A stretch of DNA of 26,213 bases. Origin: Sulfurimonadaceae bacterium (GTDB lineage: Bacteria > Campylobacterota > Campylobacteria > Campylobacterales > Sulfurimonadaceae). A program made the translations under genes and the position numbers. The stretch's first letter is position 1. Each line of letters begins with the position of its first letter. Below, one piece after another: positions 716 to 23,991 of this stretch. The notes under the pieces are model-generated. The model was not told the origin of the DNA and did no database searches. It saw only the letters and a list, made by a program, of their open reading frames with translations. Location: NCBI GenBank assembly GCA_041548245.1, contig JBFESZ010000022.1, forward strand, positions 1-26,213, given 5' to 3'.

Positions 716-726
716 CATCTAAAATG

Positions 727-5845: not shown

Positions 5846-5871
5846 ATTGTCTCCTTTAAAAATCTATATAT

Positions 5872-6423
5872 TTAATTTGCTATTACGACCATTGCATCAC
5901 GCAATGTACGTTCTTTATATTTGTACCCTTTTTGAAAGGTACTGACAATCTGACCAGATTCATGATCTGGACTATCAACTTGCTGAACCGCATGATGAAC
6001 ATTCGGATCAAACTCTTCATCTTCGGATACCGGTGTGACACCGTGCTTTTCCAGAACACTTAAAAACTGTTTCATCGTAAGCTCAACACCCTCACTTACC
6101 TTTTCAAGCAAGACTTGCGGATCTGCATCGGAATCTTTTGCTTTGATTGCACCTTCCAAGGCATCAATCACAGGAATAAGGTCCTTTGCAAACTTTTCAT
6201 TAGAGTATTCTAATGCCTGATACTTCTCTTTTTCTAAACGTTTTTTAATATTTTCAAAATCAGCATGGACGCGATGATATCTGTCCTCACTCGCAGCCAA
6301 TGCCGCTTTTAAAGTTTCTAGTTCATTCTCTTCGGTCACTTCTTCAGAAGCTTCCTCTTGCGCTTCAATCTCTTCGTTTTCAGCATCAAGATTCTCAGCG
6401 TTCTCGTGTTCCTCTTGCGACAT
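5872..6423 (-). CDS. grpE: Nucleotide exchange factor GrpE
   Basis: ADFENIKKR, FAKDLIPVID, FDPNVHHAV, FQKGY. Start reassigned to ATG 6423 (MSQEEH) behind AAGGAGG; the track start at 6474 lies inside the promoter. Confidence 0.97.
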   Translation of the reverse strand: MSQEEHENAENLDAENEEIEAQEEASEEVTEENELETLKAALAASEDRYHRVHADFENIKKRLEKEKYQALEYSNEKFAKDLIPVIDALEGAIKAKDSDADPQVLLEKVSEGVELTMKQFLSVLEKHGVTPVSEDEEFDPNVHHAVQQVDSPDHESGQIVSTFQKGYKYKERTLRDAMVVIAN

Positions 6424-6454
6424 CAATGCGCCTCCTTTTTTATATTTCGGCAAT

Positions 6455-6484
6455 ATTATACATAATTGAGTCATTGAATGTCAA
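6455..6484 (-). promoter_or_regulatory. Sigma70-type promoter of grpE-dnaK
   Basis: Minus strand TTGACA (6484-6479) - 18 nt - TATAAT (6460-6455), ~30 nt upstream of the grpE start. Confidence 0.75.
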
Positions 6485-6534: not shown

Positions 6535-6684
6535 TATTTTTCTCTAAAAGAACTCCTATGTCATGCACAGGCATAAAGGCCCTTAAGTCGTTAAAAAATT
6601 GTTTTGAATAAAATGAAATCAATAGTGAAATGTAGAAAAAGCGTGTGTGCCCAGATCAAGAAGTCAATAGATACCGCCTATATC

Positions 6685-6891
6685 CTACTTATTAGGTAAG
6701 ATATAGATACAGAAACTTCCGAATTCATTACGTAACTCAAACCTATGCTTTTTGCAGAATTCACTTCGCATCTGCTCCAATAATCTCTCTGCTTCTTCTT
6801 GCGCTTCTTCTTTATTATCAAAGCTCTGCTGTTCTGCAATAGCACGCTTTATAGCACAGGAACATGCGTTTTTTACTTCAACCGTATACAT
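6685..6891 (-). CDS. Small Cys/His protein (CSC ... FCKKH), putative metal binding
   Basis: 68 aa; AGGAG RBS in the 9-nt gap after the response regulator stop. Confidence 0.75.
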   Translation of the reverse strand: MYTVEVKNACSCAIKRAIAEQQSFDNKEEAQEEAERLLEQMRSEFCKKHRFELRNEFGSFCIYILPNK

Positions 6892-6900
6892 AAAACTCCT

Positions 6901-8235
6901 TTAAAAATCAAAAATGTCATCGAGGTCACTCTCCTCATCGTTCAAGCCATCGTCTTTCAGCATTGAAATAATAGTTTGCGTATTTGCTACAATCGTGTCA
7001 TTCATAAAGTCCGCTGAAGGTGCACCCTCTTCGAAGGTCATTTTGGCCCAGGTCTGTAAGTCAGAAACAAATGCCCCGCTTATATCGGATAGGTCTTTTT
7101 CAATCTCCATGAAACGCTGCATGTGTGAAAATATCTCACTGCTTAGGTTCAAAAGTGATTTACCTATGGGAAAGCTTTGCGTATAGATTCTCAGACGTTT
7201 ACCCAGTACATCAAGCAAGCCGGCAATCTGTTGGATATCATCCTCATTTAATCGGGAACTGCCCAGCATAAGCATTAACGAGCTCAGATCCCCTAAATAT
7301 TCATACATGTCCAATAGATCGTCATGGTCCATGTAGTTAAAGACCTGATACTCTTGTATATTTGTCTGAGCGATTTGAATATCCTGATCTTTGACATTAA
7401 TCATTGTCTCGGCAGCTTTCACCGTCTCAAAAGACGGCCTATCTTCCTCTGCAATAATACTGATTATTTTCTCAAGTCGAAAACTTATCTTTTCCCTGAT
7501 GGACTTGAATGTCTTGACCTCTTTGTTCTTTTGTATAATGAGCTTGACGATACTCTCATCAATCGCATCGAGCTTGTTGAGTGTAAAATAGATAGCATCA
7601 TTATCAGCTTCTACAATAATCCATGGTTTTTGGGAAGCTTTGACGACAGCATCCCCTAACGCATAGACTGCACGCACGACATCAGAGAGTCCATCGACTT
7701 TCGTTGATTCATCACCTAGAAGATAATATTCCCAAAACTCTGACAAGGCCTCATCATTTTCCACATAAAAAATCGTTTGTCGATGGAAGACCTCTTTCGT
7801 ATAAAGGTTGACGGATTTTTCGTTGCCAAGCTTTTCGATCTGATGACGTTTGGGCAAAAGTGAAAAATAGTTCTCTAAACGCGCATATAACAGTTCGGTG
7901 TCCAACGGCTTGGAGACATAATCTTCCGCTCCGCAGCGTAAAATCTCTTTTTGTCTTTTATCATCATCAACCGCCGATACTGCGATGATCATAACTTCTT
8001 TATCGTGTTCACGTATCTTTGTCGTTGCCTCAATACCATCCATCACTGGCATCATGATATCCATAAAGATCAGATCGTATTTTATTTCCTGTGACTTATT
8101 AAGTGCTTCCAGCCCGTTAGCACATTCATCAATCTCACACTCTATGATCTGACGACTTGCATTGTATTCTTGCACAAGAAGGGATAAGAGCATTCTGTTA
8201 TTGGCATTATCATCAACAATCAAAATCTTCATCAC
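6901..8235 (-). CDS. Response regulator: N-terminal REC domain plus unrecognised ~320-aa C-terminal region
   Basis: ILIVDD, DLIFMDIMMPVMDG, IIAVSA, YVSKP; ends in acidic DEESDLDDIFDF. Start at GTG 8235 or ATG 8232. Confidence 0.88.
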   Translation of the reverse strand: MMKILIVDDNANNRMLLSLLVQEYNASRQIIECEIDECANGLEALNKSQEIKYDLIFMDIMMPVMDGIEATTKIREHDKEVMIIAVSAVDDDKRQKEILRCGAEDYVSKPLDTELLYARLENYFSLLPKRHQIEKLGNEKSVNLYTKEVFHRQTIFYVENDEALSEFWEYYLLGDESTKVDGLSDVVRAVYALGDAVVKASQKPWIIVEADNDAIYFTLNKLDAIDESIVKLIIQKNKEVKTFKSIREKISFRLEKIISIIAEEDRPSFETVKAAETMINVKDQDIQIAQTNIQEYQVFNYMDHDDLLDMYEYLGDLSSLMLMLGSSRLNEDDIQQIAGLLDVLGKRLRIYTQSFPIGKSLLNLSSEIFSHMQRFMEIEKDLSDISGAFVSDLQTWAKMTFEEGAPSADFMNDTIVANTQTIISMLKDDGLNDEESDLDDIFDF

Positions 8236-8307
8236 AGAGGCCTTTTATACATATAACTATGTCAATAGAATAACATAATTTATACAATTTTATTCGTTTT
8301 CAACGAA

Positions 8308-9051
8308 TCAGCTGATCCTATTGAGCAGCTCTTTGCAGAAGGCTTTATAATCCTTCATCCCTTTGGTTCGCTTTTCCATAAGCACAATTGGTTCGCCGGA
8401 CTCAAACTGTTGTGCAAGTTTGATGTCGGTTCCAATAGGAGCAAAGACCTTTGACTTTCCAAAAGCCCCCTGCACTTTTTGCAGGGACTCTTTGTGCTCG
8501 TTGATGTGAGGGTTATACATCACCGGCAACATACCCACATGCTGAATCTCCGCATTCATCTGTGTGGACATCTGATAAACTGCACGTACCATCTGTCCAA
8601 CGGCAACAACGCCAAGGTGATGGGGAACAAAAGGAATTACAACGACATCAGCGACTTCAAGTGAGTTCTTTAGTAAGGCATCGAACGTTGGTGCGGTATC
8701 AATAATACAGTAATCAAAAAAATCGCCCACTTTCTCTTTTTTAAAACGGTTCTTTAATACCCCTCGCAAATCAGAGTATTCATAGACGTCGAACAGAGCA
8801 TGTGCCGGGGCCAAGGTAAGATTGTTTAATACAGTAGGGACAAAGTTCTCGCTCAAGGTCTTTCCAAAAAAGATAGAGTGTGAACCTCCATCCTCCATCG
8901 GTGCTGAACCGACACCGATGGAGGCATGCCCTTGCGTGTCGAAATCTATAAGAAGCACAGAGTGTGTTTTGGCAAGTTCTGTGGCGAGATTGACTGCCGT
9001 TGTCGTCTTAGCCGAGCCACCTTTTCGGTTAGATATGACAATAGTTTTCAT
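8308..9051 (-). CDS. ParA/MinD-family ATPase (orphan, chemosensory-cluster associated)
   Basis: Deviant Walker A SNRKGGSAKTT, LLIDFDTQG, IIDTAP, ADVVVIP. Confidence 0.9.
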   Translation of the reverse strand: MKTIVISNRKGGSAKTTTAVNLATELAKTHSVLLIDFDTQGHASIGVGSAPMEDGGSHSIFFGKTLSENFVPTVLNNLTLAPAHALFDVYEYSDLRGVLKNRFKKEKVGDFFDYCIIDTAPTFDALLKNSLEVADVVVIPFVPHHLGVVAVGQMVRAVYQMSTQMNAEIQHVGMLPVMYNPHINEHKESLQKVQGAFGKSKVFAPIGTDIKLAQQFESGEPIVLMEKRTKGMKDYKAFCKELLNRIS

Positions 9052-9110
9052 GAGTTACTTTTTAATGGTTTTATTAGCAGGATTATACCCAATGCTCTTC
9101 ATGAAGTAAA

Positions 9111-9377
9111 TTATAGATTACACTCACCTACATCAAATCCTTCTATGATTTTTTGATAGATTCTAGGCGTGGAAGCAAACTCAAACTTACAGCTATAAAG
9201 CTTTTTATACGCCAGAATCTGCTGAATTACAGAGAGGTGTACATCATCACAATCACTCAAATCAAAAACAAGCTCTTCGGGTGCAAGTGTATTCAGTTGA
9301 TCACGCAGTTGTAAGACTTCATCTTCATAGATGACCCCTGTCAAAGTTATATTATTCCCTTTAGATTCAATTGGCAT
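9111..9377 (-). CDS. STAS-like small protein
   Basis: 88 aa, ITLTG...LVFDLSDCDDVHLSVIQ; TAATG overlap with the upstream cheW. Confidence 0.7.
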   Translation of the reverse strand: MPIESKGNNITLTGVIYEDEVLQLRDQLNTLAPEELVFDLSDCDDVHLSVIQQILAYKKLYSCKFEFASTPRIYQKIIEGFDVGECNL

Positions 9378-10153
9378 TATGCACTCCTTTTCTCGAGTGA
9401 GATATCTTTGATGATAGTCACTAGTTTTTTATTATGTGACAAGATAGCTGCAACATTCATAAAATCACCCATGTGCTGTACATCCTGTACCTCATGTAAT
9501 TCAGTTTCTTCTACATGTACAATATCTTCTACAGCATCGATATTAAGCCCAATAAAACCACCCTTGTCATCCCCTATAATCAAACAGCGCTGTAGTCCAG
9601 CCGCAACTGTAGCCGAAAGATCAGAGACCTTAGACAAGCAATCAAGTGTGTTCATATAATGTTCATTCACACTAGTCTCTATCAACTCTTTTGCTTCATC
9701 AATAGAGACATTTCGTTTTTCCAAGACATCAACAGCAGAGATATGCAGGTTCTGATGATAATAACTAAGTTTTTTCATCAAAACAAGGACCTCTTCATTA
9801 TCGGGGTGGAAAGAGTCTATCCATTTTCCCAGTTCACAGACGTGAGGATCAGTCGTATCCGAAAAAGACTCTCCCGTCTCTACACTCTGCTTAAGAGTCT
9901 CTAACCACTCTTTATGCTGAGACTCCAGTATGGGAAACATCTCTTGCAACTGTTCTTCATAACTATTTTGTCCTATTGCTTTTCGAAAGCTGATCACCTT
10001 CAGAACACTCTCTTCATACTGAAACATGCCTTCGATATGCTCACCTTCATCAGGTATCTCGGTCAGTTCCTGTGCCGGCAAGATACGTTTTACACTTTCG
10101 ATATCAATACCATAATATTGACCTAGTACAGAAAAGATAACAAAGGACCTCAT
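9377..10153 (-). CDS. cheW: CheW-like adaptor with inserted CZB (chemoreceptor zinc-binding) domain
   Basis: CheW N-part (YGIDIESVKRIL...IEGM), CZB residues H80, C106 (CELGKW), H133, H137, then CheW C-part (IGLNIDAVEDIV). ATGA overlap with cheA. Confidence 0.85.
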   Translation of the reverse strand: MRSFVIFSVLGQYYGIDIESVKRILPAQELTEIPDEGEHIEGMFQYEESVLKVISFRKAIGQNSYEEQLQEMFPILESQHKEWLETLKQSVETGESFSDTTDPHVCELGKWIDSFHPDNEEVLVLMKKLSYYHQNLHISAVDVLEKRNVSIDEAKELIETSVNEHYMNTLDCLSKVSDLSATVAAGLQRCLIIGDDKGGFIGLNIDAVEDIVHVEETELHEVQDVQHMGDFMNVAAILSHNKKLVTIIKDISLEKRSA

Positions 10154-12879
10154 GAGACTTCCTCTAATGGAACCTGGAGTTGTGAAGAGATACCCAAAAG
10201 ACCTACAGGGTCTATCATCATAATAATCTGCCCATTTCCAAGAAGAGCTGTTCCGCTGAATATCGGATGTCCTTGCAGCATTCCCAGCAGAGGCTTTTGC
10301 ACAACATCAAGCTGTCCAAGAAGCTGATTGACAACAACAGCGAGCAGGTTACCCTTGATATTAAGAACGACGATACTCAACTCTTTGTTCTTGATCTCTT
10401 CCAAGTCAAGCATTGAGTTGATGAACAGCAGTGGGATCACCTCACCTCTAAGATAGATAAACGGTTCATTATGTAAGGCCTCTATCTCACTCTTCTCTAT
10501 TTTGACAGTCTCTTGTACAGAATCCATTGGGAAACCATAATGCACACCGCTCATCTCTACATGAAGAAGAGATGTTACCGCCAATGATACCGGTATAGCC
10601 AGAGTGATTGTTGTACCTACATTTGCCTCAGTGCGAATCGATATACTTCCGCCAAAACTCTCAATTGATTTTTTAACGACATCCATACCTACACCACGCC
10701 CACTAAATTCGGTAATGGATTCAGCTGTGGACAGACCTGCCAATAAGACAAGTTCTGCTCTGCCATTATCATCAAGAGCATCGATTTGGTCCATACTCAT
10801 CAACCCTTTTTCAATGACTTTTTGAATAACACGTTCTACATTGATACCTGCACCATCATCCTTAATCTCGACGATGATCTTGTCAGACTGGGCATAGGCT
10901 TTTAGGTTGACATTCCCTTCAGGGTTTTTACCTTTGGCAATACGTACGTCAGGAAGTTCAATACCGTGATCAAGCGAGTTTCTCATGATATGGATCATCG
11001 GATCGGCAAGCATCTCGATAATATTCTTGTCCAGCTTGGTGTCACCGCCCTCCATGTGTAAATTGACCTTCTTGTCCAGCTTCTTTGTAATATCTCTGAC
11101 CAGTTTAGGATAACGGTCAAACACATAGGAGATAGGCAGCATACGCATCGACATGATAAGGTCTTGCAGTTGTTCTGAAAGACGATTGATAAAAGTGTAT
11201 TTCTCCATAATGGCACGTTTGACATCTTCAGGAGTCATCTCATGCACACCATCAGCCAGATATGGCAATGAGTTTTTAGCAACCAGTAACTCACCGATGA
11301 TATTCATCAAGGAATCAACAGACTCTTGTTCGATTTTGACTGTTTTTCCAATGACATTGCGTTTTGACTCCGTCTTAGCAGCCGGTTCAACTTGAGTACG
11401 TGGTTCTTCCTGGGCAACTTCAATTTTCGGTGCTTCTTCTGTTACTACCGGATTCTCTGTTACTGGAGTCATTTGATGATCAACGCTAGGTTCTTCTTCA
11501 AACACAGCTTCTTGAATAATCTCCTCTGGAACAGGTTCTTCCAGACTCACTTCAGGGATTTCATCACTGACAAGAGCCGATGCGAAGGCCATCAATTCAT
11601 CTTTGTTAGAGACACCTTCCATACTCTCACCAAGTGACTGTGCTGTTCTTTCTAATATCATCTTGACACGTTCAAATACAGCTTCATCATCAGAAGCTTC
11701 CAACTGCATCAGTTGTTGAGAAACTATGCTTCTCGCGCTTTCACGCGTAGCTTCATCTATGACCGGTTTTATCATCTGAGCAGGTTCCGCTTTTGATTCT
11801 GCATTAGTACTCACCTCGCCGGAAAAGACCCTACCACTATGTAGCCCGTCAAAAAAGTTGCTTAGAGGCTGAAGGTCATCTGTGCACTCCATGATATCAA
11901 CAAAACGTTTGAGTTGAGCATACTGAATCGTATCCTCTCCAATAAGCCCCAGTGACTCATCAATCAATGCTTTAAGCTTCTCTTTGGATGTCAGCTCTTT
12001 CTTCGCATTGGCACTAAGCTCTTTCATTACATCAAGCTCATGAACTTCACCTTTACTCACGCCCAAGAGAGTGACAATATCAAGCGGTAAAAAGATCAAT
12101 TCATCCATAAAGTTATACAAGGCCTCTTCAATCTCGTCATACCCTGCCTCAACAAAAGCAATAATCTGTAGACTCAGGCCGAGTCCCTCGTCCTCATCAT
12201 CAATACCGCTGATTACCGACTTGGCCGCTTCCTCCTCCATACAAGAGTAGACGTACTTGACCTTATCACCCAGAAGAGAGAGCGTATAGGCAGGGTCATT
12301 ACCAAAGACCATACATGATGCATCAACATCGAAGACAATCGCATAAAAACGTACATCATTAAAGTTTTCTTCTGTGATTGCATCCATTTGAATCGGCAAA
12401 GATATTCCAGAACCAGCTAAGAAGTTAATAGGTAAATTGACAATCTTGGACTTATCCTGAAGCAAAGTCATAGGCATATTCCAAGCCTCTTTCTCACTGC
12501 TTTTACCCATTCTTTCACATAGCTCTTCGATAAGCGTATTGACAACCTCTTCATCTGCTTCTACAATATCTTCTGTATCTTCAGCGGCTTCTATAAGATT
12601 CATAACCTCATCAAAAGCATTGTATAAAGACTCAATGACCTCTTCAGTCGGAGCGACATCTCCATCACGAACCATATCTAGCAAATCTTCTGCATGATGC
12701 GTTATATCCTTAACAGAGTTGAAACCGACAATTCCAGAGCCCCCTTTAAGTGTATGTGCTGCTCTAAAGACCGCATTGACAAGTTCACTATCGCCTGAAC
12801 CAAGATTTTCAATGTTTTGGTCAATAAAAGCAAGGTTTTCTCTGGCTTCTTGTAAAAATGATTCTAATAATGGATTCAT
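10150..12879 (-). CDS. cheA: Chemotaxis histidine kinase CheA (909 aa, long central insertion)
   Basis: P1 FRAAHTLKG, P3 VDSLMNIIGEL, P4 HIMRNSLDHG / DDGAGI / GRGVGMDVV, C-terminal P5 CheW-like domain. Confidence 0.97.
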   Translation of the reverse strand: MNPLLESFLQEARENLAFIDQNIENLGSGDSELVNAVFRAAHTLKGGSGIVGFNSVKDITHHAEDLLDMVRDGDVAPTEEVIESLYNAFDEVMNLIEAAEDTEDIVEADEEVVNTLIEELCERMGKSSEKEAWNMPMTLLQDKSKIVNLPINFLAGSGISLPIQMDAITEENFNDVRFYAIVFDVDASCMVFGNDPAYTLSLLGDKVKYVYSCMEEEAAKSVISGIDDEDEGLGLSLQIIAFVEAGYDEIEEALYNFMDELIFLPLDIVTLLGVSKGEVHELDVMKELSANAKKELTSKEKLKALIDESLGLIGEDTIQYAQLKRFVDIMECTDDLQPLSNFFDGLHSGRVFSGEVSTNAESKAEPAQMIKPVIDEATRESARSIVSQQLMQLEASDDEAVFERVKMILERTAQSLGESMEGVSNKDELMAFASALVSDEIPEVSLEEPVPEEIIQEAVFEEEPSVDHQMTPVTENPVVTEEAPKIEVAQEEPRTQVEPAAKTESKRNVIGKTVKIEQESVDSLMNIIGELLVAKNSLPYLADGVHEMTPEDVKRAIMEKYTFINRLSEQLQDLIMSMRMLPISYVFDRYPKLVRDITKKLDKKVNLHMEGGDTKLDKNIIEMLADPMIHIMRNSLDHGIELPDVRIAKGKNPEGNVNLKAYAQSDKIIVEIKDDGAGINVERVIQKVIEKGLMSMDQIDALDDNGRAELVLLAGLSTAESITEFSGRGVGMDVVKKSIESFGGSISIRTEANVGTTITLAIPVSLAVTSLLHVEMSGVHYGFPMDSVQETVKIEKSEIEALHNEPFIYLRGEVIPLLFINSMLDLEEIKNKELSIVVLNIKGNLLAVVVNQLLGQLDVVQKPLLGMLQGHPIFSGTALLGNGQIIMMIDPVGLLGISSQLQVPLEEVS

Positions 12880-12888
12880 AGCAGCTCC

Positions 12889-13251
12889 TTATGGGATTAA
12901 AATTCTCAAATAGTTCTTCAATACTTCAGGCTTTATCGGTTTTGTCTCAAAAAGATTGGCACCTACTTTAAAAGCTTCTGTACGGTCCTCATCATGAGCC
13001 TGAGTTGTAATCATAATAATAGGAGTCATTGCATAAACCGGTTCTTTACGTATCTCTTGTACAAATGAGTACCCATCCATAATAGGCATATTGACATCCA
13101 CGAGATACAAAGCGATGTCTGAGTCGAGACTCCTTTCGAGAGCTTCCATCCCGTTTTCAGCTTCCACGACTTCAAAACCCATCTCTTTAAGTAAAGAACC
13201 GTGATACATCCGTACCGTTTTTGAATCATCCACTACCATTACTTTCATCAT
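12889..13251 (-). CDS. cheY: CheY-like single-domain response regulator
   Basis: VMVVDDS, LVDVNMPIMDG, IIMITT, TKP. Confidence 0.9.
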   Translation of the reverse strand: MMKVMVVDDSKTVRMYHGSLLKEMGFEVVEAENGMEALERSLDSDIALYLVDVNMPIMDGYSFVQEIRKEPVYAMTPIIMITTQAHDEDRTEAFKVGANLFETKPIKPEVLKNYLRILIP

Positions 13252-13257
13252 TCTCTC

Positions 13258-13647
13258 CTAAAAAAACTCTATTTCATTATCTTCTGATGGATTTTTAAGA
13301 TGGCCGCTAAAAGCCTCTTTTTTCGCTTTTGCCTCATCCAACACTGAATTCATCTTTGCGCGCAGTTTGATCACACTGTCATCCGCTATCTTTTCATCTT
13401 CTTTAAACGTATGAGAGAACATCTGTAAGTTTTTTTGTACCAACTCAATTGCTTCGATCGTTGCCGAAAGTTGCTGTGAGACAATATCTTGATACTGCAG
13501 AGCTTCCGCCGCATCATCATCTAACTCGATATTTTGATTTTCCATAAACGTGGAAAGTTTCATCTGTGCTTCCTTAGATATCTTAATCGTATCTTTTTCC
13601 ACTTCCTTGATATGTTCTAACAGTTCATGCAGTGAATCAAATATCAT
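13258..13647 (-). CDS. Small coiled-coil protein with CheZ-like DxxxQ motif
   Basis: ALQYQDIVSQQL resembles the CheZ active-site QDxxxQ; lies between two cheY genes; ends EDNEIEFF. Confidence 0.65.
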   Translation of the reverse strand: MIFDSLHELLEHIKEVEKDTIKISKEAQMKLSTFMENQNIELDDDAAEALQYQDIVSQQLSATIEAIELVQKNLQMFSHTFKEDEKIADDSVIKLRAKMNSVLDEAKAKKEAFSGHLKNPSEDNEIEFF

Positions 13648-13682
13648 GTTTTCCTACTTTCGAATAAATTATTTCAGTTCTA

Positions 13683-14063
13683 TTATGCTGGTAAACGCAA
13701 TACCCGTGTAATCGCTGATTTTAACTGTGTCGGATTAAAAGGTTTTACAATCCATCCTGTAAGACCCAATGCTTTCCCCTGCTGTTTCAACTCATCCTTT
13801 GTCTCTGTTGTCAACATCAACACCGGTGTACGTTTTGTTGCCGGAAGTTCACGTAAAGCTTTTAAAAGTTCCAGACCATTCATAACTGGCATATTAAGGT
13901 CGGTAATGATCAGATCAGGCACAACACCCGCCTTCACATCAGCTAAACACAGTTGTGCCTCAAGATATTGTTTTACTTCTATTGGCATTGATGAAACCGT
14001 CATACGTGTTGAAGCTAAAGCTGTTTCAGAGTCATCGATAAACATAACGATTGGATTCGCCAT
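13683..14063 (-). CDS. cheY: CheY-like single-domain response regulator
   Basis: MFIDDS, IITDLNMPVMNG, LMLTTE, GWIVKPF. Confidence 0.92.
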   Translation of the reverse strand: MANPIVMFIDDSETALASTRMTVSSMPIEVKQYLEAQLCLADVKAGVVPDLIITDLNMPVMNGLELLKALRELPATKRTPVLMLTTETKDELKQQGKALGLTGWIVKPFNPTQLKSAITRVLRLPA

Positions 14064-14106
14064 AATTTTTTTCCTTTTTATTTAATATTCATTGGTTCTA
14101 TTTCAA

Positions 14107-14148
14107 AGAGCACCGATAGCTATCTTCAAAGATAGCTACCACTGCTCT
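14107..14148. repeat. Long imperfect intergenic inverted repeat between cheR and cheY
   Basis: AGAGCA-ccga-TAGCTATCT-tcaa-AGATAGCTA-ccac-TGCTCT. Confidence 0.75.
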
Positions 14149-14182
14149 CATCTGCTGCTTTTTAGGCATAAAAAAGAGACGA

Positions 14183-15004
14183 TCATTTCTGATAAATCAT
14201 CGTGCTTCCGAACTTTCTCGCCTTATAAACCGAGACAATACGAGACATGTACTCTGCGTGCCCTAAAAAAACGTACCCGCTCGGCTTTAACATGTCATAA
14301 AAGTTCATTGCCACCTCTTTTTTACTCGCATCATCAAAGTAGATCAACATGTTTCTAGAAAAGATAATATCAAATTTTCCCAACTCACGTATTTGGGCCC
14401 TATCAAATATATTGACAACTTTAAAGTCTACCGCGCCGATAAGATCATCGATAAGAGTGTATGAAAAACTTCCCTTTTTAAAGTACTTTGCCAATTGACC
14501 AGGAGGAATAGCATGGACTGAACGTTCTGAAAATTTTCCGTCTTGTGCCTTTTTGATAACATTTGAATCGATATCGATCCCTACAATCTCAATATCTCTT
14601 CGTTCAATCAGATTAGCCTCTTCAAGAAGATAAAGGACCATCGAGTAGGGTTCTTCTCCCGTAGAACAGGGAGCAGAAAGGATTCGAAGAGGTTCATCAC
14701 TCGGACGTATCTTGTCAAGCTGCGGTAAGACATCGTTGACCATCACCTCAAACTGATCATGCTCTCTGAAAAAATAGGTCTCGTTAACCGTGACGGCATT
14801 CATAAGGTTTTGAAATTCACTTCCATCTTTGTCTTCGAAACGAAGTCTAAAGAAGTACTTTCTAAAGTTTGATACCTCTAGCTCTTCAATACGATTGACG
14901 ACATATTTATTCAGCTTGTCATAATGCTTGCTGAGTTCAAGAAAGATCCCGCTTTTACGATAAATAAATTCAGCTAGCTTTTCAAAGTTTCCTTCATTAA
15001 ACAT
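14183..15004 (-). CDS. cheR: Chemotaxis methyltransferase CheR
   Basis: TVNETYFFRE, SAPCSTGEEPYS, GIDID, FDIIFSRNMLIYFD, LGHAE. Confidence 0.97.
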   Translation of the reverse strand: MFNEGNFEKLAEFIYRKSGIFLELSKHYDKLNKYVVNRIEELEVSNFRKYFFRLRFEDKDGSEFQNLMNAVTVNETYFFREHDQFEVMVNDVLPQLDKIRPSDEPLRILSAPCSTGEEPYSMVLYLLEEANLIERRDIEIVGIDIDSNVIKKAQDGKFSERSVHAIPPGQLAKYFKKGSFSYTLIDDLIGAVDFKVVNIFDRAQIRELGKFDIIFSRNMLIYFDDASKKEVAMNFYDMLKPSGYVFLGHAEYMSRIVSVYKARKFGSTMIYQK

Positions 15005-15005
15005 G

Positions 15006-15629
15006 CTAGGCCTCTATTGATTTAATAGCAGCATCAATGGCAAAAGCCGCATAACTTTCATCCTTAAAACGCTCCTTGACTCGTCTAAGAAGTTCAACGT
15101 CTTCAGGCTGCCCTATTTCAGCCATATAGTCTACTGCCGTCATCGCAACATTTATATTTTGCTCATTCTCCAGTAATTCAATCAGCATATCACGTGACTC
15201 AGCAAAGTTCACATCTCCCAAGACATTGATAGCGAAAATACGAAGGTCATAATCATCTCCGATTAGAAACTTTACAATATAATACTTTATCTCCTGACCA
15301 TAATCCTGTAAGATAGAGATACCCAAATTACGGATATAGGCATTTGAAAGCTTTAGCAACTCCATAACCTGTTCAATTGGTGCTTCTTTGGGATCAAGCT
15401 GTGACAAGATCGCTGCTATACGTGCTGCCGTATCCTTATGCGTAGTTCGTTCGATAAGCTTGTCTACTAAGAAGTGTGCACCGTCTTTGAACTTGACCAT
15501 TTCTTCAAGTGCATACGACTTTTCATCAAAAGCTTCCGTACTTTCATAAAAACTGATCGCCTCTTCTAAGCTGCTAAAGGCAGGCAGTTCTTTGACTTCA
15601 CTCTTCGTATCTCTTTTAATCAATGCCAT
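15006..15629 (-). CDS. HEAT-repeat protein between cheB and cheR
   Basis: Helical repeats NAYIRNLGISIL, DYDLRIFAINVLG, NINVAMTAVDYMAEIG; GGAGAG RBS. Confidence 0.85.
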   Translation of the reverse strand: MALIKRDTKSEVKELPAFSSLEEAISFYESTEAFDEKSYALEEMVKFKDGAHFLVDKLIERTTHKDTAARIAAILSQLDPKEAPIEQVMELLKLSNAYIRNLGISILQDYGQEIKYYIVKFLIGDDYDLRIFAINVLGDVNFAESRDMLIELLENEQNINVAMTAVDYMAEIGQPEDVELLRRVKERFKDESYAAFAIDAAIKSIEA

Positions 15630-15652
15630 TGGCTCTCCTATTCAAGCTTCAT

Positions 15653-16720
15653 CTATTTCAGATTAACTATTTTCTTTCTTATCTCTTCAAAGTCCAATAC
15701 CTGAGAGGCCCCGCCTCTCTCATAGGCCTCTTTCGGCATTCCGTAGACAGTGCATGACTCTTCAGACTCGGCAAGAGTATAACCGCCACCTTTTTTAATC
15801 TTCACCATGCCATCAGCACCATCATCTCCAATACCGGTCAAGAGCACACCGACTATCTTGTTTGCCGGAAAAACTTTTAAAGCCGAATCAAACATCTCAT
15901 CCACCGCAGGCTGAAAGAAACGACCATTTTTGTCCTGATCGTTATAAGTCACTATCTTGCCTGAGGTTTTTTTGCGAAAATGCATATGTACCCCACCTTT
16001 TGCAAGATAAATATGTCCAGGTAAAACTTCATCATTGTTCGATGATTCATGTACCGGAGCGATGGCAACGCGGGCAAGGCGTTCGGCAAAAGCTCGTGTA
16101 AACTGTTCAGGCATATGCTGAACAATACAGATAGGATGAGGATAGCCCAAAGGTATCGAGGCAACGATTCTTTCAACAAGTCCCGGCCCGCCTGTAGAGA
16201 CACCTATTAACACAATTTTATCAATATCTTTAGAACTCTTTTGCGGTATATTCTGCTCTTCGTATTGACGTCTTGAACGTCGTTCGCGAGTAATTTCAGG
16301 CACCTTCTCTGGAGTTTTTAACCGTCGACGCGGAATACGGCTGAGCGATTTTATTTTTTGAATAATTTCCTTGCCGCTTTCTTCAACGCCGACATTCATT
16401 GTTCCCGGTTTTAAAATAAAATCTATTGCACCGAGTTCCATCGCTTCTACCGTGATGGATGCATTTTCAGAAGTTAAAGAACTCACCATCAGAATAGCTG
16501 TCGGGTTCTTTTTCATGATCTCTTTAACTGCGGAAAGACCATCAAGTACAGGCATATTGATATCCATGGTTATAACATCATAGTTCTTGGCGAGAGCCTT
16601 ATCAATAGCCTCTTGACCATTCTTTGCAATATCGATTTCAAAATCAAGATCTTCTATCAGTGACCTTAGTTGTTTACGAACCAATGCTGAATCATCGACA
16701 ATTAGCACCTTTTTACTCAA
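15653..16720 (-). CDS. cheB: Chemotaxis methylesterase CheB (REC + esterase)
   Basis: VLIVDDS, TMDINMP, catalytic GVSTGGP, VQHMP, LTGIGDDGA, YGMP. TTG start overlaps the upstream stop. Confidence 0.97.
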   Translation of the reverse strand: MSKKVLIVDDSALVRKQLRSLIEDLDFEIDIAKNGQEAIDKALAKNYDVITMDINMPVLDGLSAVKEIMKKNPTAILMVSSLTSENASITVEAMELGAIDFILKPGTMNVGVEESGKEIIQKIKSLSRIPRRRLKTPEKVPEITRERRSRRQYEEQNIPQKSSKDIDKIVLIGVSTGGPGLVERIVASIPLGYPHPICIVQHMPEQFTRAFAERLARVAIAPVHESSNNDEVLPGHIYLAKGGVHMHFRKKTSGKIVTYNDQDKNGRFFQPAVDEMFDSALKVFPANKIVGVLLTGIGDDGADGMVKIKKGGGYTLAESEESCTVYGMPKEAYERGGASQVLDFEEIRKKIVNLK

Positions 16721-18126
16721 GCAATTTCCTTGTTATCGTTTTTTGCCAATGCCAATGAGGAGAAAAGGACATTGGTATCAAACATCAGTACCAAGCGTTT
16801 TCCTTTATTGAGTTGCAAAATATTGGAAAAAAGACGTCCTTTCTCCTCTTCAGGTTTTATCTCGCTGTCTTTGATACCTCTAACATCATTCACTTTGTCC
16901 ACAACAAAACCGAGACGGTTGTCATTGACTTGCGTGATGATGATCTGTTGTTCAATATTCTCTTTTTCTTTGAGTCGTAAGATAGTATACAAAGAAGCAA
17001 TACTGATAACTTGACCACGGATATTGATAACACCTTTAATATGCTCAATGCTGTCTGCGACAGGCGTAATATCTGTCATATCAATGATTTCACTGACATC
17101 ATCGATATCAAAAGCATACTCTTCATCTGCCATTTGAAATATGACAACTTCCCTATGTGACTCTTCTGCTGCTTGCTTTTGGTTTTCATCTTTTTCTTGG
17201 TCTGATATCAGATGGCTTTGTTCGTTGACCAGTGTTCTTATTACATCCGTGTTGACAATACTTACCAACTCATTATTGAGATGTAATACACCATTTATCT
17301 TCTTGTCTTTGAAATTTTCAGGTAATCCTTCGATACGACTGATCTCAACATCTTGGATATCAACGATGTCATCGACAACAAGGCCAATATGACGTCCCAG
17401 ATGTTGTGAAACAATAATACGGTTCTTATCACTCTTCTTGACTTTAAAATCATAATAAATTCGTAAATCCGCTACAACCAATAGGTCTTGACGTAGTGAC
17501 ATCATCCCTAATATCTCTTTATTGCTCTCGGCGATTGCGGTAAAACTCTCTGGTAACGAGATAATCTCTCGGATCGAGTCTACTTCTAAGGCATACTTTT
17601 CCTCTCCCATGACAAAGAAAAGAAAACGTTGCAGATGGGATTGTTTCTCTTCACCTGAGCCACTCGAGCTGATTTCACGTACATCTTTTGAAACATATGA
17701 TGGCAGTCTTACATCTTCTATCAGACGTTCTACACTAATAATCTGAATGATATCATCTTGGTGCTTCAACAAGGCGATAATCACATCATCCGTATCCTCT
17801 ACATACTCTACAGCAGAGCTATCAACTTCAACCGAATTAATCACTTCAGAAACTAAAAGAGAAAAACGGTGTTTTTGAGTATTGATCGTCACCTGCCTTG
17901 CCTTAAATGCAGCAATATCTACAAGTGCTTGTTTCGGATCAAGCAGATAAGAAAAATCAAGAGCTGTGAGAATAGCACCTTCAATAGAACAGATACCGCG
18001 AATAGATTCAGGGGTCATTGCCATCGGAGTGATATCTTGAACACGTAAAATCTGTTCAACCTCATCCGTATTAATCCCATAAAAACATCCCTGCTCTTTT
18101 ATGATTAAAACTTCATTAATTTCCAT
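16717..18126 (-). CDS. cheW: Multi-domain CheW (three CheW domains)
   Basis: Three units: FYGINTDEVEQIL..IRGIC, YALEVDSIREII..ILGMMSLR, YAFDIDDVSEII..IKGVINIRG. Confidence 0.9.
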   Translation of the reverse strand: MEINEVLIIKEQGCFYGINTDEVEQILRVQDITPMAMTPESIRGICSIEGAILTALDFSYLLDPKQALVDIAAFKARQVTINTQKHRFSLLVSEVINSVEVDSSAVEYVEDTDDVIIALLKHQDDIIQIISVERLIEDVRLPSYVSKDVREISSSGSGEEKQSHLQRFLFFVMGEEKYALEVDSIREIISLPESFTAIAESNKEILGMMSLRQDLLVVADLRIYYDFKVKKSDKNRIIVSQHLGRHIGLVVDDIVDIQDVEISRIEGLPENFKDKKINGVLHLNNELVSIVNTDVIRTLVNEQSHLISDQEKDENQKQAAEESHREVVIFQMADEEYAFDIDDVSEIIDMTDITPVADSIEHIKGVINIRGQVISIASLYTILRLKEKENIEQQIIITQVNDNRLGFVVDKVNDVRGIKDSEIKPEEEKGRLFSNILQLNKGKRLVLMFDTNVLFSSLALAKNDNKEIA

Positions 18127-18183
18127 TAATTATCCTTCTACCCTAGCCCATAAAAAGAGCCAAAGGGCGCATTATACAGGTAA

Positions 18184-20064
18184 TCAGCCCTGTTGAAGTT
18201 CATCTGCCATCACAGCAAGTTCTTCGACACCTTCTCCGATATGAGATATGGTATCGATAATCAATTCACTCGCTTTGCGTGACTCTAAAGCATTTTTAGC
18301 CGATAGCTCAACTGCTTTTTGAATTTCGGTGATACCAATGAGAACAGAGTCCAGTCCCTCTAAGTTCTGATCATTGATCGCTTTAAGACCTGTATATCTG
18401 TCAAGAAGTTCGACAAGCATGTTAATGATTTTATCCATTTCCAACACCAATGAGTCAAGACGTGTTTTTTCACCGCCCTGACCATCAAGCAGACTGCTCC
18501 AGTCATCTTGGACCATGCTGATCTCTGCATTCATACCCTCAATCGTATCGTTAATCTTCTCAGTATTCGATTCGGAGTCTTTTGCCAATGATCTGATATC
18601 AGCCGATACGACGGCGAACCCTTTTCCGAACTCACCGGCACGGGCTGCTTCAATCGAACCACTGATAGCGAGCATATTCAACTGTATAATAGAGTTGGAG
18701 ATGTTACCTACCGTCTTATCGACATTTTTAGTCTCTTTAACAATCACTGCAAGCTCATCACTTGCACCCTTACCTTCTGAGATAGAATTAAGGACTTCCC
18801 CGTTGATTGAAATCATCGAGTTTTTCACTTCGGCAAAAGAAACTTTGAGCAAGTCAAAGTTTCGTCTGGCAATCTCTATCAACTTATCGATATCTTTGGC
18901 TGCGGCTATACCGCCTTCAATATTATCTTTATTCGAAAGTGCGGACTGGTTTGTCGCTTGAGAAGATGATTCGATCTCATTAAGGGCCTGTGTAACCTGC
19001 TCAAGTCCTGACTGAATCTCTTCCATATTGCCGCCGATTGTATCCGCTGTCGCTGCGATATCCTCAGCAGATTTGGCCGTATCCGTAGAAAATTTCAATT
19101 CTTCTGCCAGTGCACTTAAGTCTTTAATATCTCTTTCTGTCTGTGCAAGTGCATTCGACTGTAATTCAATTCCGTTAAGTGTCTGCTCAACAGACAATGC
19201 TGCACGGCTTGAAGCTTCTGCGATCTCAGCGGAACCCTCATTGACGGTCGCCGCATAATTCCCGAGCTTTTGTGTAAATACAGAAACTTGCCGAGCCGCT
19301 TCAACTGAGTAAACTGCAATCTTAGTCAGCTCTTCCATCTTCAGACTAAGTTCAGATGACGTGTCACCTGTTTTGCTAATCGTATTGGTCGTATTGATAA
19401 TGTTCTTGATAATAGTATCAATACTACCTTGTATCTTATTGACCAACTCAGAGATGAACTCCGCATTTTTCTCACTCTCTGCTGCCAATGCTCTTGTTTC
19501 ATCTGCTACAACTGCGAATCCTTTACCATGTTCTTTCGCACGACTTGCTTCAATAGCAGCATTAAGCGCAAGCAAGTTCGTCTGATCTGCAATCTTAGCA
19601 ATAAAACCGACCGCTTCACCAATATTTTGTGAAGAGACTTTCAACTCCTCACTCTTTTTAGAAGAAGACTCTGCAACACTTACTGCACCTGTCATACGTT
19701 CAACTGAACCGTTGATCATATTAACGGCATTAATGATGGTATCACCTGTGGCTAGAGTCGAGTTGATAACGGTATCAATATTACCTGTCATTCTATTGAT
19801 GTTATTATTAATACCCTTAACATTCTTCAGCGCCTGTTCACTCGCACCACTATTCTCTTCTGCCGCTGTTGCTATCTGCTCCATTGAAGACTTTAGCTGT
19901 TCGATAGCTGACACTGACTCTTGAGCATTGTCTAAAATATTTGAAGCAATCCCTGAGATACTTTCTGAGATCTGTTGTTGCTTGGCCAAAGTTCGTTGGC
20001 GTCTCTTGTCTCCTCCACTTGCTGGGGCAACACTACTTGATGAACTGCTTTTTACTAATGCCAT
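18184..20064 (-). CDS. Cytoplasmic MCP with two signalling domains (DosM-like)
   Basis: Two hairpin-tip motifs (QTNLLALNAAIEASRAKEHGKGFAVVADETRALA and QLNMLAISGSIEAARAGEFGKGFAVVSADIRSLA); no TM or sensor domain seen; GAGGAG RBS. Confidence 0.92.
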   Translation of the reverse strand: MALVKSSSSSSVAPASGGDKRRQRTLAKQQQISESISGIASNILDNAQESVSAIEQLKSSMEQIATAAEENSGASEQALKNVKGINNNINRMTGNIDTVINSTLATGDTIINAVNMINGSVERMTGAVSVAESSSKKSEELKVSSQNIGEAVGFIAKIADQTNLLALNAAIEASRAKEHGKGFAVVADETRALAAESEKNAEFISELVNKIQGSIDTIIKNIINTTNTISKTGDTSSELSLKMEELTKIAVYSVEAARQVSVFTQKLGNYAATVNEGSAEIAEASSRAALSVEQTLNGIELQSNALAQTERDIKDLSALAEELKFSTDTAKSAEDIAATADTIGGNMEEIQSGLEQVTQALNEIESSSQATNQSALSNKDNIEGGIAAAKDIDKLIEIARRNFDLLKVSFAEVKNSMISINGEVLNSISEGKGASDELAVIVKETKNVDKTVGNISNSIIQLNMLAISGSIEAARAGEFGKGFAVVSADIRSLAKDSESNTEKINDTIEGMNAEISMVQDDWSSLLDGQGGEKTRLDSLVLEMDKIINMLVELLDRYTGLKAINDQNLEGLDSVLIGITEIQKAVELSAKNALESRKASELIIDTISHIGEGVEELAVMADELQQG

Positions 20065-20089
20065 AGATTATCTCCTCACTTTTCTCAGT

Positions 20090-20518
20090 TTAGTCTAAAG
20101 TAGCATAAAGCTCTTCAGCTTTCTTAATATCTTCACGCGATGGTTTAACACGAATAGATACGTATTTAGTATTGCCATTTTTATCGACAGAACGAAGCAC
20201 TGTGGCATAAACCCAATAATATCCCCCGCCTTTGCGAGCATTCTTTACATACCCCGTCCAGAACCCTTTAGATTGAACATCATCCCACAATGATTTAAAC
20301 GCAGCACGCGGCATTTCAGGATGACGTACGCAGTTATGTGGCTGTCCATACAATTCAGTCTCGTCCATATTTGCGATCTGCATAAATGAGTCTGATGCGT
20401 AAGTGATGATCCCCTTCTCATCTGTTTCAGACAAGAGGTATAAAGAGCTGTATAAAACCTCACCATCATCTAGAAAGGTCAACCCCTCAGTATCCAAAAC
20501 ATTTTTCTTTTTTGCCAT
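20090..20518 (-). CDS. Stand-alone PAS protein of Aer/CetB type (probably FAD-binding)
   Basis: SETDEKGIITYAS..F...ELYGQPHNCVRHPEMP..AF..LW......W.G.VKN..K.G.YYWV; AGGAG RBS. Confidence 0.9.
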   Translation of the reverse strand: MAKKKNVLDTEGLTFLDDGEVLYSSLYLLSETDEKGIITYASDSFMQIANMDETELYGQPHNCVRHPEMPRAAFKSLWDDVQSKGFWTGYVKNARKGGGYYWVYATVLRSVDKNGNTKYVSIRVKPSREDIKKAEELYATLD

Positions 20519-20883: not shown

Positions 20884-21159
20884 CTAGATGTTGTCGCGGA
20901 TGTTTAGTTTTGCAATTAATGCATAATAGCCATCTTTGTTTTTGCGTTTGAAATAACGCATCAAACGACGACGTTGACCAACAAGTTTTAGAAGACCAAG
21001 ACGTGATGCATGATCTTTTTTAAATGTCTTAAGGTGCTCAGTAAGTTCTGCAATACGCGCGCTCAATAGCGCAATTTGAACCTCTGATGAACCAGTATCA
21101 CCCTCTTTGCGACCAAATTCTTTTATAATCGCTTCTGTTTTCGCCGAATCTAAAGCCAT
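20884..21159 (-). CDS. rpsO: 30S ribosomal protein S15
   Basis: [37 protein letters not shown]. Start reassigned to ATG 21159 (MALDSAK) behind GGAGG. Confidence 0.98.
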
Positions 21160-21211
21160 AATTGACCTCCCTGATTGGTATATTAAATTTCCCAAGAATT
21201 TGAGATTTGAA

Positions 21212-21217
21212 AGTATA
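21212..21217 (-). promoter_or_regulatory. Putative -10 box of rpsO
   Basis: TATACT on the minus strand ~50 nt upstream of the start, in an AT-rich divergent spacer. Confidence 0.4.
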
Positions 21218-21312
21218 GCCAAAATTTATTAGATACAGTTGAAATCCTTTTATGCCTAATGCCATGATTTTAAAAACAAAGAGGACAAAATCTATCTTTT
21301 ATCTATTTTATG

Positions 21313-21318
21313 TATAAT
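21313..21318 (+). promoter_or_regulatory. Putative -10 box of the Rrf2-flhA operon
   Basis: TATAAT 36 nt upstream of ATG 21355. Confidence 0.5.
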
Positions 21319-21354
21319 ACACCCAATATATATAGTAAAGAAGGACTGACCTCT

Positions 21355-21759: not shown

Positions 21760-21772
21760 GACCTTCTAGACA

Positions 21773-23968: not shown

Positions 23969-23991
23969 AAGCGACAACACAAAGGTAACAC

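Follow-up and report, generated by a model that had tools for sequence, protein, structure and literature searches.

Chemosensory systems of the F9 class are defined in PMC9321776 (Mo et al. 2022) by two unusual proteins, a receptor with double signalling domains (DosM) and a triple CheW (CheW3). In the survey reported there, full F9 clusters were found in 64 of 2781 species, the systems were sporadic across many phyla, and 97% of the F9-carrying species were flagellated. Cluster I of Vibrio cholerae forms DosM-stabilised double-layer cytoplasmic arrays, which have been imaged (PMC7534058). According to the same source, no input signal, output or phenotype had been established for F9, and no F9 system had yet been shown to affect motility. 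The S6 table of PMC9321776 lists F3, F7 and F9 systems for Sulfurimonas gotlandica GD1 and Sulfuricurvum sp. 17-40-25, with the F9 gene order DosM W3 B. R Y. Y A W1. Here, a cluster of this kind is described from a Sulfurimonadaceae bacterium (assembly GCA_041548245.1, contig JBFESZ010000022.1); the whole stretch of DNA that was analysed, 26,213 nucleotides, is called the window. The core of the cluster is already known. Its conserved periphery, which consists of a PAS gene, a CheZ-like gene and a 3' module, is undescribed as far as literature searches show.

The cluster lies on the minus strand at 6685-20518, where the list of open reading frames and the Pfam and NCBIfam searches place 15 consecutive co-oriented genes with an intergenic spacing of -4 to 119 nucleotides. 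Both F9 signatures are present. The DosM-type receptor (18184..20064, 626 amino acids) has two MCPsignal stretches in Pfam and no sensor domain. Its residues 33-270 and 333-557 form an internal duplication (27.6% identity, E-value 4e-15), two hairpin-tip motifs are found at about 165 and 465, and its hydropathy does not exceed 1.15. CheW3 (16717..18126, 469 amino acids) contains three CheW stretches (Pfam E-value 8.8e-66). Further along the cluster are a CheB methylesterase with a receiver (15653..16720; CheB_methylest and Response_reg, with 368.8 bits against a cut-off of 293 for the NCBIfam CheB subfamily), a HEAT-repeat protein between cheB and cheR (15006..15629, 207 amino acids; HEAT_2, E-value 9.1e-14) and a CheR methyltransferase (14183..15004; Pfam CheR, E-value 4e-51). 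Then come the single receiver CheYa (13683..14063, 126 amino acids; Response_reg, E-value 5.2e-21, with the DD, D, T and K positions present), a CheZ-like protein (13258..13647) and a second single receiver, CheYb (12889..13251, 120 amino acids; Response_reg, E-value 3.5e-26). The core ends with a CheA kinase (10150..12879, 909 amino acids), in which Pfam finds Hpt, a long linker, H-kinase_dim, HATPase_c and a CheW-like P5 and no receiver domain, and with a CheW that carries an inserted CZB domain (9377..10153, 258 amino acids).

This core order matches the S. gotlandica and Sulfuricurvum F9 entry exactly. It also fits the order DosM-W3-B-x-R-Y-A taken from the V. cholerae F9 entry of the same table, DosM W3 B. 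R Y A. Y M. Because the DosM and CheW3 signatures are present and the gene order is identical to a published F9 entry, the core is very probably an F9-class cytoplasmic chemosensory cluster, an assignment made by signature proteins and synteny rather than by class hidden Markov models of CheA, CheB and CheR. None of the 15 proteins has an evident membrane helix in 19-residue Kyte-Doolittle means. The highest values, 1.83 in ParA and 1.79 in CheA, fall in core strands of Pfam-matched soluble ATPase domains, and the remaining 13 proteins stay at or below 1.42.

Just one other CheA is encoded in the genome of the window. It lies on another contig (C87) downstream of cheV (CheW-REC) and has a C-terminal receiver, so that its domain order is Hpt-dim-HATPase-CheW-REC; the end of the locus comes before any cheW would appear. 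PMC9321776 gives a cheV-cheA-cheW operon and an additional receiver domain in CheA as markers of F3, and the C87 pathway has two of these three markers. Judged by these domains, the F9 system sits beside a separate F3-type flagellar pathway in the same genome. The CheA of the window is 50-61% identical to its orthologues in syntenic loci of other genera and 86% identical to that of a locus from the same genus (L054).

An earlier model-written note on this DNA, referred to below as the original prediction, had described 15 co-oriented genes with the named domains and no evident membrane helix, and this description is confirmed by the open reading frames, Pfam and hydropathy. Its F9-like call holds as well, since DosM and the triple CheW are present and the order fits V. 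cholerae and exactly fits the S. gotlandica and Sulfuricurvum entry. The separate F3 pathway that it had set beside the cluster is found as cheV followed by CheA-REC on contig C87. The claim of an undescribed system fails for the core, because the F9 core of these genera was catalogued in 2022 (PMC9321776) and CheW-CZB fusions are known (PMC8262984). Overall, its interpretation is partly supported.

The cluster was traced in related genomes by a CheW3 alignment, with one genome per species. The scan gave 20 true loci, all in Sulfurimonadaceae, and one spurious match (L074); loci L033, L034 and L076 are on the same contigs as L073, L066 and L063 and were counted once. The 15-protein order recurs in these 20 loci of other Sulfurimonadaceae at 27-95% protein identity, and the arrangement is thus far more than chance. 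PAS, DosM, CheW3 and CheB occur in 20 of 20 loci, and the HEAT and CheR genes in 19, with the twentieth stopping at the end of its contig. All 18 loci that continue past cheR contain CheYa, the CheZ-like gene, CheYb, CheA, a CheW-type gene, the STAS-like gene and ParA. The response regulator named RECX here is encoded in 17 of the 18, and the small protein after it in 9 of the 10 loci that have room for it. The order is old, because CheW3 is only about 37-42% identical in other genera (19 of the 20 loci).

The phyletic pattern ties the 3' genes to the core. Among 151 genomes of the family, 46 carry CheW3 (counted at E <=1e-40) and 47 the STAS-like gene (by profile, at E <=1e-6), and all 46 are among the 47; the extra STAS-like genome without CheW3 is 74% complete. 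Both genes lie on one contig in 36 of the 46 genomes, and the other ten are fragmented assemblies. In the genus of the window, 15 of 16 genomes have both. Elsewhere the two are patchy (3/29, 12/29 and 2-3/5 genomes of other genera), which argues for joint gain and loss of CheW3 and the STAS-like gene, in counts where related genomes are not independent samples. A sample of 401 genomes across the phylum has both genes in the same 5 and neither in the other 396. One of these 5, genome G277 of another family, carries the F9 core from PAS to CheA-CheW on one contig, where it ends against bamA. The STAS-like gene, ParA, a REC-PAS kinase, RECX and the small protein are on another contig, with a PP2C gene on one side and housekeeping genes on the other. 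The 3' genes are a separable module, yet one that occurs only where F9 occurs in the sampled genomes. The original prediction had supposed that the accessory genes are co-conserved and had proposed a synteny survey across Campylobacterota. Run as the locus mapping and the 401-genome sample, this survey strongly supports the supposition: the accessory genes accompany F9.

The input side can be approached through the first gene of the cluster, which encodes a PAS protein of 142 amino acids (20090..20518; PAS_3, E-value 2.9e-11, also PAS_9 and PAS in Pfam). In a phmmer search of PDB, its residues 26-141 (116 residues) matched the PAS domain of the Escherichia coli aerotaxis receptor, 8dik_A, with an E-value of 1.2e-28. 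The Aer PAS domain monitors respiration through flavin adenine dinucleotide (FAD), as described in PMC9668731, and the stand-alone PAS is a probable FAD-binding sensor of redox or energy state. This homology is what supports the flavin PAS of the original prediction. According to PMC9321776, 98% of DosM homologues have no sensor, so the arrays require extra inputs. The PAS gene adjoins the DosM gene in 20 of 20 loci and also in L075. Because DosM homologues are mostly sensor-less and PAS adjoins DosM in every locus seen, the PAS protein is the obvious input candidate, and we consider it rather probable that it serves as the input of the DosM array. Some Sulfurimonas F9 loci carry a gene for a REC-REC-GGDEF diguanylate cyclase, upstream of PAS and divergent from it (L066 5532-6782, similarly in L069 and L071); it is not found in the window.

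A further input may enter through the extra CheW. Its residues 4-79 correspond to positions 2-77 of the CheW profile, CZB follows at 80-143 (36.7 bits against a cut-off of 29.4), and the last 107 residues correspond to profile positions 54-128 (E-value 0.002). From these alignments, the CZB domain is inserted inside the CheW fold and not appended to it. Its sequence contains HVCELGKW, which we take to be the zinc-ligand motif of CZB. The CheW-CZB of the original prediction stands as a domain call in Pfam; it is not a constant part of the cluster, as a full-length gene of this type occurs in 12 of 18 loci and in the remaining six the STAS-like gene is flanked by one or two plain CheW genes.

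Between the two CheY genes lies the CheZ-like protein of 129 amino acids. It has no Pfam CheZ match at E <=0.01 and no Pfam or NCBIfam family, its alignment profile finds no CheZ and nothing significant among solved structures, and its 165 relatives are all without a name or 'hypothetical'. In 22 sequences, residues Q51, Q53, D54, I55, Q58, Q59, F128 and F129 are invariant and give the motif QYQD54IxxQ58Q (QYQDI..QQ) and the EIEFF end. In CheZ of E. coli, the catalytic pair is an Asp and a Gln four residues apart, and the C-terminus is a CheY-binding peptide. The genome's own F3-type CheZ, itself a sub-threshold Pfam CheZ match whose relatives are named CheZ by one source, carries MQYQDIHRQK. 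In a profile-profile comparison (hhalign), the CheZ-like protein and Campylobacterota CheZ aligned over 43 columns around the motif with a probability of 60% and an E-value of 8.6e-5; an earlier, thinner comparison had given a probability of 13%. Taken together, the motif and the tail suggest that the protein likely works like a mini-CheZ, set outside the CheZ family proper.

The most conspicuous product of the 3' module is RECX (6901..8235, 444 amino acids), in which a Response_reg domain is followed by about 310 residues without a Pfam match. All phospho-acceptor residues of the receiver are present. Behind the receiver, the models place a Bergerat-like domain (about 148-259), a disordered linker, a helical bundle (about 299-433) and a disordered but strongly conserved tail, DDIFDF. 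The AlphaFold2 models reached a mean predicted local distance difference test score (pLDDT) of 76.6 and 88.1, the latter with an alignment of 68 sequences. Because a fold search with full RECX was filled by receiver domains, the C-terminal part was folded and searched separately. The family of this C-terminal part of ~310 residues has 173 representatives among 1.84 billion, almost all of them fused to a receiver, and public annotation calls them only 'response regulator' or 'CheY-like'. The mid domain resembles RsbW, SpoIIAB, UsfX and the RsbW domain of Rv1364c (VIA Z 8.6-10.6 over 97-109 residues), and Foldseek gives probabilities of 0.97-1.00 but E-values of 0.015-0.09, none <=0.001. The two independent fold searches agree on this resemblance, and the full RECX model was aligned to LvrC over 229 residues. 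The bundle aligns with five CheA P1 structures at Z 10.8-12.6, values that unrelated bundles also reach and that a designed repeat protein ties. Since it matches no HATPase family and conserves neither a nucleotide-binding motif nor a histidine in the bundle, RECX is best regarded as a receiver-gated, probably non-catalytic binding module. Two other roles were considered. A PP2C-type regulator of the HsbR or RsbU kind was rejected, as there is no SpoIIE match and the two PP2C genes of the genome lie elsewhere, unlinked. A true Hpt relay was rejected because no His is conserved, though one relative has a real Hpt gene at the place of RECX.

RECX is often found next to histidine kinases. In L035, L057, L060 and L034, a REC-PAS-HisKA-HATPase kinase directly precedes it. 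In 5 loci, ~1.5 kb separates parA from RECX, and in the three that were checked this space is taken up by such a kinase. The window's genome itself has two RECX paralogues, 33% and 37% identical (G000:C23:8232-9542, locus L046, and G000:C38:17755-18903, locus L045), and both come directly after sensor histidine kinases. The kinase before one of them is a HAMP-HisKA-HATPase protein next to an NMT1-type binding protein; before the other there is a dCache kinase and another receiver protein.

Relatives of RECX are also found in chemosensory clusters of other types. A non-F9 cluster, L036 (G267:C11, 1-9231), has the order MCP-CheW-CheV-CheR-REC-HATPase fragment-CheD-weak ParA-like-CheB and closes with two genes, one CheZ-like and, directly after it, one of the RECX family, in a genome with no CheW3 and no STAS-like gene. 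In one genus of another family (L041, L043, L051, L052), the order is CheY-CheW-MCP-(open reading frame of 89 amino acids)-CheA-CheR-..-CheD-CheB-[REC-PAS-HisKA-HATPase]-RECX paralogue, so that the paralogue is the last gene of the che cluster, behind a Rec-controlled kinase. The 89-residue product encoded beside cheA in L041 was considered as a STAS-like relative and set aside, as it has no similarity to the STAS-like profile. In L037 (G285:C7), a RECX paralogue stands beside five MCP genes in a run, four of which encode a C-terminal CZB. Across Campylobacterota, several different chemosensory clusters close with a member of the RECX family.

Three smaller proteins complete the module. The first, of 88 amino acids (9111..9377), matches STAS_2 with 21.2 bits, below the cut-off of 29.2, and its designation as STAS is a weak, sub-threshold call. 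C43, D45 and H47 are invariant in its alignment. No serine is conserved at the position that is phosphorylated in RsbV and SpoIIAA, where V, I or M is found instead, the equivalence of positions being read from the alignment and not from a structure. This protein might be a partner of the anti-sigma-like domain of RECX, an adaptor of ParA or a CheS-like accessory of CheA. The ParA/Soj-type ATPase (8308..9051, 247 amino acids; AAA_31 103.5 bits and CbiA 60.1 bits, both above cut-offs) has an intact deviant Walker A, KGGSAKT (NRKGGSAKTT). Its nearest solved relatives are a member of the ParA family, 8ray_B (E-value 1.3e-25), and Soj proteins, and it is 65-95% identical in 18 of 18 loci. In most loci, the STAS-like gene overlaps or abuts parA (e.g., L034 11490-11756 and 11740-12483; L035 7808-8077 and 8061-8804), and in the window the two are 59 nucleotides apart. 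The last gene encodes a CxC...CxxH protein of 68 amino acids (6685..6891), for which the NCBIfam search gave no family beyond a weak IHF-beta match (E-value 0.002). C10, C12, C46 and H49 are conserved in an alignment of 12 sequences and form a possible metal site.

A working model can be proposed for the whole unit. It is inferred from what the loci hold, that is, the gene content, the two F9 signatures, the lack of an evident membrane segment, the conserved order and the pattern shared by the STAS-like gene and CheW3. At the input, the stand-alone PAS protein of Aer type would report redox or energy state to the sensor-less DosM array, and the CZB domain of the extra CheW, where present, would add a zinc or thiol-oxidant input at the baseplate. 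Adaptation would proceed through CheB and CheR. CheA would phosphorylate CheB, both CheYs and RECX, the latter directly or, in some relatives, via the REC-PAS histidine kinase, and the CheZ-like protein would take phosphate off one or more of the receivers. RECX is the candidate non-flagellar output, with a receiver that would gate the degenerate anti-sigma-type Bergerat domain and the histidine-less P1-like docking bundle, in the way proposed for LvrB-LvrC of Leptospira. The STAS-like protein, being non-phosphorylatable, would likely act as its partner or antagonist. ParA may position or partition the array, or the RECX complex, on the nucleoid.

We regard it as reasonably likely that the window holds a complete F9 cytoplasmic system with a permanently associated, separable five-gene module in Sulfurimonadaceae, operating along the lines of this model. 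The single steps differ in probability. That RECX is a CheA-dependent output is about evenly balanced, and that ParA is the positioning ATPase of the array is somewhat less probable than that. A more far-reaching version appears unlikely. In it, RECX would be the non-flagellar F9 output, a receiver-gated, kinase-dead anti-sigma-type protein exchanging partners with the F9-specific STAS-like protein, which would at the same time be the ParA adaptor. Redox state, sensed via PAS, would set the activity of CheA, and CheA in turn would govern gene expression or the array itself, in its placement or inheritance, or both. The REC-PAS kinase of some relatives would be an ancestral relay from CheA to RECX that mirrors LvrA-LvrB-LvrC.

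There are several observations that weigh against the proposed system and its mechanism. The F9 CheA is classed by signature proteins and synteny, and the steps of the mechanism are read from sequence, synteny and models. The anti-sigma likeness of the mid domain of RECX is a resemblance of folds with Foldseek E-values above 0.001, without a Pfam HATPase match at E <=0.01 and without a conserved Asn- or Gly-box in the alignments. The Z values of the bundle are attainable by unrelated helical bundles, and in alignments of 10 and 68 sequences it has no invariant or near-invariant His, nor does it match Pfam Hpt. Only 5 of 21 members of the STAS-like family match STAS_2 at E <=0.05, and the family profile finds no STAS protein among solved structures. 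CZB is missing from a third of the loci. CheA may not be the kinase of RECX, because elsewhere, and twice in this genome, RECX paralogues come after ordinary histidine kinases. In a Sulfuricurvum-type F9 locus (L076, G365:C3, 3463-6394), RECX is replaced by a dCache-PAS-HisKA-HATPase-REC hybrid kinase of 851 amino acids and a stand-alone Hpt protein of 129 amino acids. The 3' module is physically apart from the core in G277. Finally, promoter-like sites precede parA (9110-9082) and RECX (8303-8275), and a hairpin at 14114..14141 splits the cluster.

Some of these observations would be expected if the STAS-like protein, ParA, RECX and the small protein formed an independent unit of the two-component or partner-switching type, served by a kinase encoded elsewhere and tied to F9 by regulation or history, not by signalling from CheA. 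In G277 the module, on its separate contig, includes a REC-PAS kinase of its own and has a SpoIIE/PP2C gene as its neighbour; the ~1.5 kb insert between parA and RECX in 5 of 17 loci is attributed to a kinase gene, as found in the three that were checked; the RECX paralogues of the window's own genome follow HAMP or dCache histidine kinases; and the promoter-like sites at 9110-9082 and 8303-8275 could serve such a unit. The pairing of genes speaks against this independence, since the STAS-like gene accompanies CheW3 in 46 of the 46 CheW3 genomes of the family and in all five CheW3 genomes among the 401 of the phylum, with the single 74% complete genome as the sole exception. In addition, CheA is the only kinase encoded within the unit of the window, and the gaps between its genes are short. 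An independent unit is held to be improbable. It is about equally improbable that the cluster serves energy taxis as an auxiliary pathway leading to the flagellar motor via CheYa or CheYb. The CheZ-like protein, the STAS-like protein and RECX would then only shape the flow of phosphate, as a sink, a phosphatase scaffold or an accessory of CheA, comparable to CheY1, CheS and CheT of Sinorhizobium. The core does hold two CheYs and a CheZ-like gene, and the tails of RECX (DDIFDF) and of the CheZ-like protein (EIEFF) are both acidic-aromatic ends, similar to the CheY-binding C-terminus of CheZ. Receivers could dock on the P1-like bundle, and CheZ-like and RECX genes are direct neighbours in the non-F9 che cluster L036. 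CheS, a STAS-only protein, binds CheA and speeds the dephosphorylation of CheY1, as described in PMC12654446, and flagella are present in the 97% of F9-carrying species counted in PMC9321776. A pure phosphate sink, however, leaves the Bergerat-type domain and ParA unexplained, no similarity of the STAS-like sequence to solved STAS proteins can be detected, and the statement in PMC7534058 that no F9 system had yet been shown to affect motility points the same way.

A narrower alternative concerns positioning only. ParA and the STAS-like protein might together position the cytoplasmic array as their cargo, ParA as the ATPase and the STAS-like protein as its small adaptor or activator, with RECX unrelated to positioning. 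This would agree with the overlapping or abutting genes in most loci, with the presence of both in 18 of 18 loci and with the intact deviant Walker A of ParA, and ParA-family ATPases position arrays in Rhodobacter (PpfA) and Vibrio (ParC/ParP), as reported in PMC5706961, PMC3964821, PMC11407121 and PMC7534058. The distance of 59 nucleotides between the two genes of the window fits it less well, and the known adaptors, the N-terminus of TlpT and ParP, are unrelated to STAS. Such a pair is doubtful, if somewhat less so than the independent unit or the pathway to the motor, and the reading that is preferred here is still that of an F9 system with RECX as its candidate output.

The boundaries of the unit can be outlined on the minus strand. 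The scan for terminator-like structures found a hairpin at 6555..6571, 3' of the last gene, which is the probable 3' end of the unit. The other hairpin (14114..14141) lies in the cheR-cheY gap of 119 nucleotides; it has a 12-bp stem and a T-rich tail, is a consensus match only and is a possible internal terminator or attenuator. The cluster may be split there into two transcripts in the genus of the window. The gap is similar, 122 nucleotides, in L054 of the same genus; in other genera it is about 15-30 nucleotides in most loci, with exceptions up to about 160 nucleotides. After the cluster, grpE and dnaK follow on the same strand (3968-6484), with a perfect TTGACA-18-TATAAT promoter match for grpE at 6484-6455. 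The rest of this side (1-3900) holds open reading frames at 196-672, 727-1266, 1263-1832, 1829-3064 and 3197-3853. The upstream flank (20884-26213) consists of rpsO on the minus strand and then, on the plus strand, an Rrf2-family regulator (21310-21759) and flhA (FHIPEP, 21773-23968), a flagellar export gene that is 1.2 kb from the chemosensory cluster; beyond flhA are a DHH/DHHA1 protein and a weak nitroreductase-family open reading frame. Among sequencing runs, one DNA run of a marine metagenome contains the stretch, and no RNA run was listed for it.

The significance of the locus lies mainly in its periphery. The F9 core never occurs alone in Sulfurimonadaceae: it comes with a plausible sensor, the Aer-type PAS, and with a plausible effector set of RECX, the STAS-like protein and ParA. 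The periphery thus supplies testable candidates for the missing input and output of F9, and S. gotlandica GD1 is a cultivable relative listed with the same core. The locus also defines a small output family of response regulators, without annotation beyond the receiver, which would combine REC, a degenerate Bergerat domain and a histidine-less P1-like bundle.

Compared with the F9 systems of S. gotlandica GD1 and Sulfuricurvum sp. 17-40-25 in PMC9321776, the core order is the same, the family is the same, and F3 is found alongside. The S6 table ends at the extra CheW and shows the HEAT and CheZ-like genes as dots, and the PAS, STAS-like, ParA, RECX and small-protein genes are absent from the S6 entry and from the columns of the S3 table. 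The literature searches gave no description of the extended cluster, while some of its genes may appear in the figures of PMC9321776 and in the figures or Mendeley tables of PMC9239204; in a figure legend of PMC9239204, che gene orders are written with the letter 'S' for a STAS-only gene and 'K' for a kinase. With cluster I of V. cholerae, compared by its listed gene names, the window shares the order DosM, triple CheW, CheB, one gene without a name, CheR, CheY and CheA. Both systems are purely cytoplasmic, that of the window as judged from the hydropathy of its proteins. V. cholerae differs in that A. Y M is listed after CheA, with no second CheY and CheZ-like gene before CheA and no ParA.

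On the input side, the nearest parallels are Aer of E. coli and CetA/CetB, which PMC2628428 describes as a bipartite energy-taxis receptor of Campylobacter. The PAS protein of the window is, by sequence, homologous to the FAD-binding PAS of Aer and, like CetB of C. jejuni, is a separate polypeptide beside its receptor. CetA and Aer are membrane-anchored and have HAMP, whereas the partner in the window is a sensor-less, HAMP-less, double-tip cytoplasmic receptor. The same combination of CheW and CZB is a recognised minor architecture that accounts for 1.4% of CZB proteins (Perkins et al. 2021, PMC8262984); the published fusions are most abundant in Clostridia, and in the window CZB sits inside the CheW fold. 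A ParA-family ATPase inside a chemosensory cluster is likewise known from PpfA of Rhodobacter sphaeroides, which serves a cytoplasmic array, and from ParC/ParP of the polar arrays of Vibrio. The likeness is one of description. Among solved structures, the ParA of the window is nearest to generic ParA/Soj proteins, and its candidate adaptor is the STAS-like protein and not a receptor N-terminus or ParP.

For the output, a small STAS-like protein encoded with an anti-sigma-fold protein recalls the partner switching of RsbW/RsbV and SpoIIAB/SpoIIAA, and the CheS gene of alpha-proteobacterial che operons also lies inside a che cluster near CheA and two CheYs, as described in PMC12654446. The window departs from both in that its STAS-like match is sub-threshold with V, I or M at the phosphoserine position, RECX has no serine-kinase motifs, and a PP2C neighbour is found only in G277. 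A close parallel is found in Leptospira, where LvrC, a receiver fused to an anti-sigma Bergerat domain, is phosphorylated by the Rec-controlled kinase LvrB (2026, PMC13269768). The Bergerat domain of RECX is shorter (about 110 amino acids), without a Pfam HATPase match or a conserved ATP-binding motif, and RECX has in addition the P1-like bundle and the conserved acidic-aromatic tail. In RECX too, nevertheless, a receiver is followed by a domain of predicted Bergerat-like fold, and with the REC-PAS kinase that lies before RECX in several relatives the layout has two steps, as in LvrB-LvrC.

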